Origin: Octopus sinensis
Taxonomy: Eukaryota
Length of the DNA: 64,000 nt
Direction of reading: 5' to 3'
Assembly (NCBI RefSeq): GCF_006345805.1
Contig: NC_042997.1
Coordinates: 190,154,001-190,218,000, forward strand
This document shows, in pieces, positions 5,795 through 58,427 of the stretch (its first letter is position 1; every line of letters begins with the position of its first letter). The notes under the pieces were generated by a model that was not told where the DNA came from, did no database searches, and worked only from the letters and a program-made list of their open reading frames with translations. A program made the position numbers and the translations under genes.

Positions 5795-6594
5795 CATTTG
5801 ATTATAATATTCATATATACTTTGTAGTGTCGCATATATTCTCAAGCACACATATATGCTATCAATATTTTGCTAACTATGAAGTATTTCTGCGCGCCTG
5901 TTGCTAAAATTCATATTAGTAAATACTTTCCTATACGAACGTTTAATACTCTCGAAGCCTGCATAGTAGATATATTTATATTGGAATTATATTCATGTTG
6001 AGAAGCATTCACAAAATACCTTTCTTCCTAAGAATAAACTCATAAAGCTAGATTATATCTATTGGCTTTTAAACAAATCAACAACGTTCCACACCGTGCT
6101 GATTCTGGTCTCAGACCATTACCTCTAGATACAGTAAGAACATAAAAATGTGAATTACCGGAAATCATTGAATAAGGAAGGAAGTTACTAAGTAATGGAT
6201 GAAAGTTATAAAGAAATATTAAAGATAGAAAAAAATATTTTCGTGTCTTAAATCTTTATATTTTAATTTCTCTGTTTCTTTTTCTCCATTTTCAATGAGC
6301 TTGCAAAGAATTTTCTCTCCATGGATGTTTTCTTTTGGTTTTCTTTTAAGTTATAATGCCAGGCTTTTGTATTCATTCACAAAAATCCAATATACTTTGC
6401 TAGTTATCTAAAATCTTTAGCTGCAGTTACAACGAGATTCACTGGAGAGGCTTAATACGGTCTCTTACATGTGGTTGTTCTTGTACTGTTGAAGACAAGG
6501 CTCATTCTGCAATGTCATCCATTTTGAATAAATTTAGATAATTAAAATTGTTTGGTTTACTGTGTCAAGTGAAAGTGTCTGGTATGGTGAAGAG

Positions 6595-23481: not shown

Positions 23482-23519
<38 letters not shown>

Positions 23520-23721
23520 TATTATTATTATTGTTGTTGTTGTTGTTGTCAGGGGTAGTGCTTGGAATCGAACTCGGAATCTTGGGATTAGTAGCCCGCA
23601 CTTTTAACCACTACGGCATCGGGCATATGGCGTAAGGGTTAAGATCGCGGGCTACAAACCCCAAGATTCCGAGATAGATTCCAAGCACTGCCCTTAACAA
23701 CAACACAACAACAACAACAAC

Positions 23722-23754
<33 letters not shown>

Positions 23755-34871: not shown

Positions 34872-36708
34872 CATGTATCGTACTCTTTTAACAGTGCGTT
34901 GATGACTCAACACCGAAGGTCTTACAAATTGAGGCTTGAGTTCTGCCATTGAATGAAGTATTACTTTCTCATTTGTCGTACGTTTTCTTGCCAGAGATAT
35001 TGGGATGGTTTACCATTGCTTCCTCCGACTGGATCACCGTTGGCCTACAAGGAACTCATCCAACATTAAACAGGTTGTACTTTTAGTGTTGCTGTGTGTC
35101 CGGGCACCCTTCTTACAAGAGTACAAGCCACTCAAGCTGGTGAGCCCGTTTAGTCACTGACTACTTCAAAGTTTTATGTTCTACCTAAGTAACCAATGTG
35201 TACTTTTAACCGTTACCGGACATTATAGTTTGACAATTATAAAAATCAAAACAATTGCAGCGTGGAAGGTGTTTATAAGCCATTTAAGAAACTCACAAAA
35301 CCGTTAGATTCACTTCAACATTTAAATTTAATTTGCCAAAATATTTTCGTCGCTTTGAGACCCCGACCTGTTCACTGACAAAATTCCGTGCTTCATCCCT
35401 TGAATTTTGTCAGTGAACAGGTCGCAGTCTCAAAGCGACGAAAATATTTTGGCAAATTAAATTTAAAGTTGAATTGAATCTAACGGTTTTGTGTGTTCTT
35501 AAATGGCTCATAAACACCTTCCACGCTGCAATTGTTTTCGTTCCAGCACACGATCTCAGATCAGGTCACTTGCAATGTCAGTACATCTCCGTAATAATAA
35601 CAATATATTTTTGCCAATATACAGCATTATGTGTGTGACGTAATTGACTTTGTGCTATGTATATATTCTTCTACAAGCAGTATATCTAATATATCGGCAC
35701 AATGACCTCTTAATGACAAAAGGCATTTGTGATATTTTGCCCGGCGTCATAATGATTGTGCCAGCTCGCTGCTTTTTTGTGCTACTTATGTAGCACAAAA
35801 AGCAGCGAGCTGGCACAATCATTATGACGCCGGGCAAAATATCACAAATGCCTTTTGTCATTAAGAGGTCATTGTGCCGATATATTAGATATACTGCTTG
35901 TAGAAGAATATATTACATAGCACAAAGTCAATTACGTCACACACATAATGCTGTATATTGGCAAAATATATTGTTATTATTACGGAGATGTACTGACATT
36001 GCAAGTGACCTGATCTGAGATCGTGTGCTGGAACGAAAACAATTGCAGCGTGGAAGGTGTTTATGAGCCATTTAAGAAACACACAAAAACCGTTAGATTC
36101 AATTCAACATTTAAATTTAATTTGCCAAAATATTTTCGTCGCTTTGAGACTGCGACCTGTTCACTGACAAAATTCAAGGGATGAAGCACGGAATTTTGTC
36201 AGTGAACAGGTCGGGGTCTCAAAGCGACGAAAATATTTTGGCAAATTAAATTTAAATGTTGAAGTGAATCTAACGGTTTTTGTGAGTTTCTTAAATGGCT
36301 TATAAACACCTTCCACGCTGCAATTGTTTTGATTTTTATAATTGTCAAACTATAATGTCCGGTAACGGTTAAAAGTACACATTTGGTTACTTAGGTAGAA
36401 CATAAAACTTTGAAGTAGTCAGTGACTAAACGGGCTCACCAGCTTGAGTGGCTTGTTACTCTTGTAAGAAGGGTGCCTGGACACACAGCAACACTAAAAG
36501 TACAACCTGTTTAATGTTGGATGAGTTCCTTGTAGGCCAACGGTGATCCAGTCGGAGGAAGCAATGGTAAACCATCCCAATATCTCTGGCAAGAAAACGT
36601 ACGACAAATGAGAAAGTAATACTTCATTCAATGGCAGAACTCAAGCCTCAATTTGTAAGACCTTCGGTGTTGAGTCATCAACGCACTGTTAAAAGAGTAC
36701 GATACATG
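34872..36708. repeat. 1.84 kb near-perfect palindrome (arms ~915 bp, 4 nt loop at 35786-35789)
   Basis: catgtatcgtactc... mirrored by ...gagtacgatacatg; centre tgtgctac-ttat-gtagcaca. Confidence 0.97.
35407..35455 (+). ncRNA. Hammerhead-like motif with G3-C8 core (H4); related copies on both strands within 35248-36330
   Basis: TTGTCA-GTGAACA-G-GTCGC-agtctcaaa-GCGAC-GAAA-ATAT-TT-TGGCAA. Confidence 0.6.
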
Positions 36709-43896: not shown

Positions 43897-44541
43897 TATC
43901 ATACAGGTTGAAGATGGGAAGAATGGCTTGCCTTTGCAAATACTGATAGGGCACAGAAGGTGTGTCAATAGCCAGCTGGATGAGGTGTCCTTCTATGTCT
44001 ACAAGCTACAGTAGCATCTACCCTTAAGGGTTAGCCACATTTAAGTGGCAAATATACTTCACGATATATATGAATATATATTATTTTATATATACATATA
44101 TATATTAATATATATATATCTATCTATATATATATATTAATATATATATCAATATATATATATATAGATATATATATATATATACGTTTAAATATTTGTT
44201 GTGCAAGATTTTTTATGTGAAGTCGTGTGTTGAAACAGATATTGTTATATTTCGGAATGGTCATTTATATCATATTGCCGAAATAAGATTAAGATTAATG
44301 TAAAAAATAAATATCACTGAAGCAAAATAACATCAAATATATAGTGCGTGTGTTTTTATTGGCTAAACTGGCAATATGACCATTCCGAAATATAACAATA
44401 TATATATATATATTATATTAAATTAGAGATAAAACCACTATTAGGCAAATCATACAATGAAAAACTTAAGCCAATACATAAGATTAATTAATTTATATTA
44501 TTTAAATATATATCAAAATTATTAAAAAAGATAATTAATAT

Positions 44542-44610
44542 AACACTACGATCGTTTCATAGCTGTTCAATTCTTAAAATTTTCGAGTTACAGTCATTCT
44601 TCAGGTGGTT
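44542..44610 (-). ncRNA. Minimal type I hammerhead motif (H6, inverted copy)
   Basis: Minus: AACCAC-CTGAAGA-ATGACTGT...ACAGCTAT-GAA-ACGATCGT-A-GTGTT. Confidence 0.75.
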
Positions 44611-44710
44611 TAAATATTTAACTTGGCGAGGTTTAATCAATGAGTTCATTTATTAAACCTCACCAAGTTAAATGAGTTCATTGATTAAACCTCGCCAAGT
44701 TAAATATTTA

Positions 44711-44777
44711 AACCACCTGAAGATGACTGTAACTCGAAAATTTTAAGATTGAACAGCCATGAAACGATCGTAGTGTT
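44711..44777 (+). ncRNA. Minimal type I hammerhead motif (H6, forward copy)
   Basis: AACCAC-CTGAAGA-TGACTGT...ACAGCCAT-GAA-ACGATCGT-A-GTGTT. Confidence 0.75.
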
Positions 44778-44996
44778 ATATTAATTATCTTTTTTAATAA
44801 TTTTGATATATATTTAAATAATATAAATTAATTAATCTTATGTATTGGCTTAAGTTTTTCATTGTATGATTTGCCTAATAGTGGTTTTATCTCTAATTTA
44901 ATATAATATAATATTTTACTATAAAATTGGATTCAATCCTAAATCTGATTTTTCCCTGTAAGTTTGGATTTATTCCCTAATATTTTATTATTAATA

Positions 44997-49548: not shown

Positions 49549-49852
49549 TTATCCGAGAAAAGGGATTTCAACCTCATGATTCATGATTTTTTTTCTATCA
49601 TGATATTGGCATTAACTTTCGTCTTAATACTAAGTATACATTTCAGTAAAAATAAAATTCTCTGGTGTCATAATAATTTTACTTCCTTTATCGACACAAT
49701 TTCCATTCAGATTGAAGTCTATCCAGTATAAATATGAACTTGGTGAGTGAAACGCATCTAAGTGAGATGAATGTTGAACATTCAGATGTATGCTATGTAT
49801 CTGCAAGTCTATATATACAAACTTATATTTATATATATATATATATATATAT

Positions 49853-49899
<47 letters not shown>

Positions 49900-50092
49900 C
49901 GCATATTTACCATTTGAATATGGCTAACCCATAAGGGTGGATGGTACTGTAGTATCTACAAACTACAGTAGCATCCACCCTTATGGGTTAGCCATATTCA
50001 AATGGCAAATATGCGTCACGATGTGTTACCGCTACTGTTTATAACTCGCTCTGAGATTTATCATTATATATATATATTTATTTATATATAAG

Positions 50093-57402: not shown

Positions 57403-57463
<61 letters not shown>

Positions 57464-57679
57464 TAAGGAAAAATTTTTTAAAAATGCAGAATGCTCAAAT
57501 GAAAGAAAATTTTAATAAAATGAGAAATTGATAAAATATATAAATATATATTTATATATTTTATCAATTTCTCATTTTATTAAAATTTTCTTTCATTTGA
57601 GCATTCTGCATTTAAAAAAAAATTTTTCCTTACTTATCATTTCTCCACGTGCGGTCAACACAACCCCACCATTTATTGA

Positions 57680-57734
<55 letters not shown>

Positions 57735-57863
57735 AGGTTGAAAACGCCACTATATAAGATAAATCTTTATTTTTCTGAGAGATTTTACATGTTTCGGTTC
57801 CTCAAAAAGCAAACCTTACCAAAAATATATATTTTAAAAGTTAAGTGTAATAAAAGAAAATAT

Positions 57864-57912
57864 TTTTTTGATAAGGTTCGTTTTTTTCAAGAAGAAACGA
57901 AACATGTAAAAT
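57864..57912 (+). ncRNA. Hammerhead-like motif with U3-A8 core (H8), decayed
   Basis: TTT-TTGATAA-GGTT...AAAC-GAA-ACATGT-A-AAAT; the inverted arm gives a perfect GGTT...AACC stem II. Confidence 0.45.
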
Positions 57913-58427
57913 CTCTCAGAAAATTAAAATTTATCTTATATAGTAGTGTTTTCAAACTTCTTATATATATATATGTGTGCATACATATGTACGCGTGTGT
58001 ATGTGTATGTGTACATGTATATATATATATATATATTGATGTATACATGTTTTTGTGTGAAAATATACAGTGAGGGACAGATTAAGAGAAAGGCAAAAAC
58101 AGTGATAACTGTGGTGATATAAACTATTGCAATTCTAATTAATGTTTCCATTTAGTGTCCAACCCATCGAGTGTTAAATGGCACGTCTCTTTTGGAGAAT
58201 ACTCTACTTCGTCAATATCCACGAAATTTGTTTCCTCGAATTTAGTCAATCAAATGTTGATATGTAACAATTGAAGAGATACATTTTCTGATCTTTGCCA
58301 CAGCTGTAATCTACCTCTAAATACATAAATGTATTTTTGACATACACCTCTATAATAGGCTGCTGGGTTCTCTTGCCTCTTTGGTGAATAAACCTAAAAT
58401 GCCAAGTATTATAATACATATAAGAAA

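Follow-up and report, generated by a model that had tools for sequence, protein, structure and literature searches.

The closest described systems to this locus are the minimal type I hammerhead ribozymes of Penelope-like elements (PLEs) reported by Cervera and de la Pena in 2014 (PMC4209133). According to that report, these motifs lie in the pseudo-LTRs (pLTRs), carry an extra base that separates position 9 from 10.1, a G10.1-C11.1 pair and a short palindromic helix III, commonly have U17, and occur as thousands of scattered solo copies and as opposite-strand pairs; they are also described as cleaving poorly in vitro. The 56-motif alignment given there contains C3-G8, two cases of U3-A8 and one of U3-G8, with no G3-C8 among its rows. 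Compensatory change of the 3-8 pair is reported in nature as U3-A8 (Perreault 2011, PMC3088659), which reaches family scale within PLEs in the Schistosoma Cercyon elements (PMC4209133). U3-A8 takes two transitions with a possible U-G wobble route, whereas G3-C8 takes two transversions via C-C or G-G and, unlike U3-A8, gives a pyrimidine at position 8. The G3-C8 exchange itself has been engineered as C3G/G8C (PMC11167929, PMC9901934, PMC8495972). It is reported as unique among core double mutants in showing strong positive epistasis (PMC9901934), as partly rescuing the protein-assisted hammerhead of the Anolis Poseidon PLE (PMC11167929), and as giving partial rescue in PMC8495972 and PMC3884650. 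Our literature search found no natural G3-C8 hammerhead; examples might already stand in Lunse 2017 or its supplements. What is known already thus comprises U3-A8 in nature and G3-C8 by engineering, and a natural, high-copy G3-C8 state at family scale, as opposed to a laboratory-made one, would be the new part.

Here we analyzed a 64,000-nucleotide stretch of Octopus sinensis contig NC_042997.1, referred to as the window herein, in which an earlier note had pointed to a hammerhead with a swapped core. Stem I, GUGAACA, GUCGC/GCGAC, GAAA and the palindromic stem III, as named in that note, were all found where it had placed them. On the forward strand, the 5′ strand of stem I (TTTGTCA, 35406-35412) is followed by the core GTGAACA (35413-35419), which reads G3 U4 G5 A6 A7 C8 A9; the numbering holds, since G3 directly follows stem I and C8 directly precedes A9. 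An inserted G at 35420 lies between 9 and 10.1, an insertion of the PLE-hammerhead type as described in PMC4209133, where the consensus has H. Stem II (5 bp, GTCGC/GCGAC) with a 9-nt loop II occupies 35421-35439, GAAA (G12 A13 A14 A15.1) lies at 35440-35443, the palindromic stem III AATATT at 35443-35448, U17 at 35449, and the 3′ strand of stem I (TGGCAAA, with one G-U in the stem) at 35450-35456. By analogy with known hammerheads, the cut would be expected between 35449 and 35450. U4 G5 A6, A9, G12 A13 A14, A15.1-U16.1 and H17 are all present, stems I, II and III surround a three-way junction in type I order, and the features of minimal PLE hammerheads (extra nucleotide at 9/10.1, G10.1-C11.1, palindromic helix III and pLTR location) are found as well. 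The literal consensus CUGANGA is not matched by GUGAACA. Rfam returned nothing at gathering score in the whole window, and a search of 35380-35600 at E≤10 likewise gave no hammerhead, which bears out, for Rfam and for this G3-C8 motif, the claim that standard searches miss it.

The motif sits in a two-armed element. The inverted pLTR copy spans 35248-35397 on the reverse strand, from the usual 5′ boundary of the family to the first (tail-less) 3′ end, with its own G3-C8 core at 35369-35375. Junction bases at 35398-35401 (unstranded) separate it from the direct pLTR copy, which runs with its tail from 35402 to 35594 on the forward strand and includes the first ∼30 codons of the PLE ORF (35503-35594), whose RT and GIY-YIG domains follow in full-length copies. 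The tail (35539-35594, forward strand, ∼55 nt) lies between two clusters of 3′ ends, a notion of the tail taken from PMC11167929. The inverted and forward arms and the tail stand as first described, while 11 of the 15 bases called a spacer (35387-35397) belong to the 5′ end of the inverted copy. Likewise, stem II is intact as GUCGC/GCGAC in the forward arm only, a C-to-G change having cut it to 4 bp in the inverted arm. The extra G at 35420, the PLE identity and a mirrored copy of the element were all absent from the earlier description. This mirror image of the whole element (about 35980-36330, unstranded) lies within a near-perfect, unstranded palindrome of 1.84 kb (34872-36708) that contains the element twice. 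The palindrome has 98.8% identity and a 4-nt loop, its arms are one substitution and ∼10 one- or two-base indels apart, mostly in homopolymers, and both outer ends start with CATG. It is either an assembly artefact or a very recent fold-back duplication; the indels resemble long-read errors. A relaxed scan of the window found four occurrences of the motif because the two-armed element sits in this palindrome. Pfam on 16 window ORFs revealed no real gene, and the element itself is an ordinary repeat fragment, a truncated and likely dead PLE insertion. Further short palindromes with simple-repeat flanks lie at 23492-23754, 44404-44914, 49826-50090 and 57405-57991; they probably represent inverted ends from other PLE families. 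A decayed copy at window position 57868 has a core resembling U3-A8, and such a core was likewise seen at locus L170.

Copies of the element abound in the same genome (G000), with at least 817 recovered by two exact flanking anchors and 2699 BLAST candidates, 40 of which were scored. The motif is not a chance occurrence, because these 817 two-anchor matches and 1040 strict G3-C8 matches compare with 0 in reversed-pattern controls. The 3′ ends of the copies fall into two clusters ∼55 nt apart, at query positions 187-191 in 67 and 130-137 in 41 of 121 tallied matches, and head-to-head pairs are common among 90 mapped loci. An inverted truncated partner with an optional tail is described as a PLE signature (PMC8557442), the tail being the stretch between two RT start sites inside the start of the ORF (PMC11167929); the two 3′ ends together with the inverted partner therefore constitute the PLE signature. 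Longer copies reach upstream through a CTAAC/pyrimidine/CAG boundary (112 exact matches) into a TACA-rich region and the end of a GIY-YIG ORF. A near-intact full-length copy, L417 (G000:C2:32070000-32077500), has a G3-C8 motif at 2065, an ATG at 2157 and a second motif at 6426, and its ORF consists of 608-aa and 475-aa frames with one frameshift between them. Both L417 and a second copy, L147, show the EN+ PLE layout of one RT plus C-terminal GIY-YIG ORF between direct pLTRs, and L417 is G3-C8 at both ends.

The RT-EN protein P0002 carries DKS-G, RT YVDD, GIY-YIG-like and CCHH residues (motif names partly after PMC8557442), and in an alignment of the PLE protein a Cys linker, C-x3-C-x2-C, precedes VYQIKC...YIGET. 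A search with P0002 recovered 258 homologues at E≤1e-30. PF00078 or PF01541 is present in some of them, and the source of the best one (56%) labels it a reverse-transcriptase-domain protein from Octopus vulgaris. Pfam on P0002 itself gave no match; another copy had a GIY-YIG match at E=0.0037, short of the curated cut-off. A Neptune-type Cys-rich linker is present between RT and EN, a feature that Nematis shares according to PMC8557442. As far as that source describes them, Neptune and Nematis, PLEs whose GIY-YIG domain is C-terminal and whose linker resembles a zinc finger, have the same single RT-EN ORF, Cys linker and pLTRs, and also an inverted 5′-truncated partner, a tail and insertion beside TA repeats. 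The tail is ∼55 nt here versus 30-40 in Neptune and Nematis, and the likeness is one of architecture and motifs rather than of an RT tree. We also considered non-LTR retrozymes, which are described as short non-coding PLE-related units that likewise bear a type I hammerhead (bioRxiv 10.64898/2026.07.22.740005). Those form head-to-tail arrays, whereas here the copies are pLTR ends that derive from an autonomous element and stand solo or head-to-head; all 90 mapped loci were solo or inverted, with no head-to-tail tandem units, and we rejected this assignment. Although L091 and L092 look like tandem pairs, they arose by local duplication and have no PLE ORF.

When we tallied copies of the window's family (family A) in a strict sequence context, 1040 of 1153 were G3-C8 and none was C3-G8, so the swap is family-wide, as a family consensus had been proposed to reveal. 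G3 was combined with another base at 8 in 66 copies (33 T, 27 G, 6 A), and 47 had a base other than G at 3 (45 with C8, 2 with A8, 0 with G8). The comparison that gives this state its meaning comes from sister families. Family C, found by protein search, has an ORF ∼56% identical and, 3′ of its ORFs, a pLTR with CTGATGC-G-GTCAC...GTGAC-GAAA. A C3-G8 pattern with the same stem II base gave 4554 matches (families C and D) versus 28 in the control, and the family D core, CTGAAGA-G, has the same letters as A at 4-7, 9 and the inserted G and differs at 3 and 8 only. Since the downstream region and tail align among A, B, C and D, where B is a subfamily close to A, their motifs are homologous. Positions 3 and 8 are thus Watson-Crick complementary in both states, G-C in family A and C-G in the sisters, and the C3-G8 to G3-C8 exchange suggested by the earlier note is genuine when measured against homologous C3-G8 families. 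Over 27 distinct rows the pair was C-G in 18 and G-C in 9, with two-sided changes also at stem II 10.4-11.4 and stem III 15.2-16.2; we selected these rows ourselves, using a pattern biased towards C or G at both positions, and few events lie behind them, many rows being non-independent because the swap is one evolutionary event. In the youngest-looking sister, family C (L167-L180, L211-L240), A9C (CTGATGC-G) is fixed in most listed copies, and older-looking relatives of that family retain A9. The fixation of A9C implies loose core constraints in this clade. A pattern scan of metagenomes found hammerhead geometry at 0 of 120 loci among the matches listed.

Having established the extent of the swap, we compared the parent lineages that carry it. 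Subfamily B has long open ORFs at ∼12% amino-acid distance from A, with loop II rewritten and the core and stems unchanged. An older lineage, E, appeared first as 2 of 70 pattern matches and then as 31 matches to a pattern that fixed 14 core and stem letters but allowed any base at positions 3, 7 and 8. Among its 29 distinct copies, G3 was present in 28 and C8 in 21, and C3 in none. Relative to A, lineage E has C at N7, a 7-nt loop II and a stem III of AAUU in place of AAUAUU, with the palindrome retained, and its outer stem I pair is G-C in place of U-A, a compensatory change. When the majority letters in A are set against those in E, differences appear at 20 of 87 downstream columns, as against 0 of the 20 structure-bound positions that the pattern left unfixed (Fisher p=0.02; 0.005 as 0.77^20). 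This test is small, its columns were counted by eye, and the 3′ strand of stem I, like stem III, was registered by hand. Positions 3 and 8 form the tertiary pair of the active core, and their retention would therefore imply that an active fold was selected. Selection on the parent elements is thus indicated by sequence comparison, and we infer a single swap in the ancestor of A, B and E. The proposal that ribozyme function is under selection accordingly survives for the parent lineages and is not supported for the window copy and the dispersed copies.

The dispersed copies tell of decay. Among them, 4.1% have a base other than G at 3 and 5.9% a base other than C at 8, and at the free position N7 the base varies among the first 100 copies of the listing in 5. 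Changes at both 3 and 8 were observed twice, versus 2.8 expected, and this is the independent variation of the two positions that the earlier note had named as evidence against its reading. Independent variation is, however, what neutral decay after insertion would produce, and it therefore passes no verdict on the parents; the individual dispersed copies are themselves free of selection, as judged from their letters. Among variants at position 8, G8 is enriched over A8 (27 versus 6, p=0.0003). Its carriers form groups of related copies, some of them 5′ pLTRs to which the ORF is still attached (L146-L150, L147 and the group of L143). This indicates that motifs predicted to be dead were copied. 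Since G3-G8 is equivalent to the single C3G mutant, which is reported as inactive in PMC11167929, cleavage would not be needed for copying. A tree of 139 pLTR copies was star-like with unsettled bootstrap, and G8 fell on several backgrounds, so that intermediate and reversion are indistinguishable; 5 of the 26 "G8" labels in it are small deletions. A cluster on contig C20 (L126, L133-L138 and L142; G000) has a common loop II change, and most of its members are G8.

All 1153 counted copies span the predicted cut and were therefore made from uncut RNA. Truncations among the matches surveyed showed no clear peak at the predicted cut and were spread over the 13 positions viewed. Four junctions at this site, among the first 100 of 390 matches, were examined as candidate cleavage-terminated cDNAs and discarded, each joining the inverted copy via the 7-nt self-homology of stem I. 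We also considered whether a 5′ pLTR remains attached to the ORF only when its ribozyme is dead, an idea weakened by the G3-C8 copy L417, one of ∼3 independent cases. For a hammerhead, both U17 and the choice of G as the inserted base are unfavourable and slow. Both are also found in the C3-G8 sister families, and U17 is common in the published PLE alignment (PMC4209133). In the single PLE system reconstituted in vitro, cleavage has been reported as dispensable for insertion (PMC11167929).

In predicted folds, the isolated 57-nt motif gave pair probabilities of 0.72-1.0 for stems I and II. Separately, sliding the stem partners as a control lowered pairing to 22-53%, versus 90% for the true partners. 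With downstream sequence added, the stem I probabilities of the window copy fell to 0.06-0.10, as compared to 0.64-0.88 for subfamily B. The AAUAUU duplex alone is marginal (−0.2 kcal/mol, with a computed −3.8 for a 10-nt stretch). Because the arms in the window lie on opposite strands, no dimer can form from one transcript; a transcript across both arms was predicted to fold as a single hairpin of ∼140 bp at −212 kcal/mol, and the window copy is probably locked in this hairpin and inert. Of the 24 listed runs, 21 contained the stretch, and these fell under five organism codes plus one metagenome label. In four runs, none of them the low-share X20-X23, no alternative letter at 3 or 8 stood among the differences listed. 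The RNA reads came from a run of an organism that carries the stretch, which need not be Octopus sinensis, and repeats were skipped. Its 1537 reads were equally divided between strands, 83% continued into unrelated sequence, and ORF depth was at most 4; this signal is host read-through. No pile-up of read ends or cut ends was seen in ∼6% of one raw run and contig sets, and no splice joint in the same share of that run.

Taken together, these comparisons point to a real, family-wide natural G3-C8 variant of a known PLE hammerhead, with putative catalytic activity. The window holds a truncated insertion, and we consider it probable that the type I motif of its family was selected in the parent elements and in them still cleaves itself slowly, as a dimer or aided by the element's protein. 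In such a scheme, the parent element would be transcribed in tandem, and the palindromic stem III would let two motifs pair, or folding would be aided by the RT/EN protein as in PAc. The RNA would be cut slowly after U17, at a point that lies 53 nt upstream of the ORF start. Most cDNA would be made from uncut RNA, beginning at either of two sites in the first codons of the ORF and often ending at the boundary ∼23 nt upstream of G3. Cleavage is probably unnecessary for each copying event, because most copies come from uncut RNA and G3-G8 variants also spread. With some doubt, we suggest that the lineage may have crossed a two-transversion valley in the core, possibly via the still-copied G3-G8 state, while long keeping an attenuated active ribozyme.

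The motif could instead be a dead or nearly dead relic, in which two neutral changes restored the pair in one parent and the family multiplied independently of any ribozyme. Neutral, independent decay at 3 and 8 among copies, the copying of G3-G8 lineages, the lack of cut ends in DNA copies or RNA and the dispensability of cleavage reported in vitro (PMC11167929) would all be at home in this account. Yet it leaves unexplained why no structure-bound position changed between A and E while nearly a quarter of the downstream columns did, why a stem I change was compensated and a 2-nt difference in stem III preserved the palindrome, and why loop II was rewritten in A, B and E, and we regard it as unlikely. 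A fold selected for a non-catalytic task, for instance to bind the RT/EN protein or to regulate ORF translation, would make the core part of a shape. The motif's position, a short way upstream of both the ORF start and the two inferred sites where RT begins, is consistent with this, as are the tolerance of A9C in family C and the report that the PAc protein binds near its own hammerhead and uses uncut RNA as its main template (PMC11167929). However, a reciprocal 3-8 exchange with invariant U4 G5 A6 and G12 A13 A14 fits a catalytic core better than a protein site, which would read fixed bases, and the loops, the likelier contact points, vary most; this account therefore seems quite unlikely to us. 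Lastly, the letters might be held by an overlapping signal, either a short upstream ORF or a transcription-start or splice-acceptor boundary ∼23 nt upstream of G3. An ATG does follow CTAAC, a pyrimidine stretch and CAG at the start point of many short copies, and in A it opens a 22-codon frame, but the frame differs among A, B (stop after 7 codons) and E, and neither a promoter nor a splice signal explains paired stem changes, so that we find this very improbable.

The reading of a slowly cleaving motif selected in the parents bears on a possible in vivo role of PLE hammerheads: a swap kept in three lineages beside homologous C3-G8 families argues for a selected active fold, and gives the G3-C8 variant better comparative support than a single copy could. 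If the lineage did cross the valley and keep an attenuated active ribozyme, this would amount to comparative proof of in vivo selection on the active conformation, and entire ribozyme families of high copy number would be escaping CUGANGA descriptors. Search descriptors should permit any 3-8 pair. The genome also offers a matched natural series of C3-G8 (D), C3-G8 with A9C (C), G3-C8 (A, B and E) and G3-G8 variants.

Some features of the surroundings deserve mention. A branch-point-like CTAAC, a pyrimidine tract and CAG stand right before the ATG ∼23 nt upstream of G3 (L058, L064, L096-L145), and this ATG is the one that, read from the sequence, opens the 22-codon frame over the motif in family A. 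Many short copies start at the CAG|ATG boundary, often with GAG in place of CAG. Of 17 copies that start there with AG and lack the longer match upstream, 10 continue with G at the place where longer copies have C. Copying of the cap can be a source of an extra G. The boundary could be a splice acceptor, like that of D. virilis Penelope, or a transcription start with a copied cap; inspection found no matching 5′ splice donor. Seven loci (L105, L115, L125, L129, L130, L143 and L144) represent one internally deleted, core-damaged element in a multi-kb segmental duplication, several copies of which lie near contig ends. A canonical minimal hammerhead with the core CTGACGA, belonging to an unrelated family, was seen at L174:9435.
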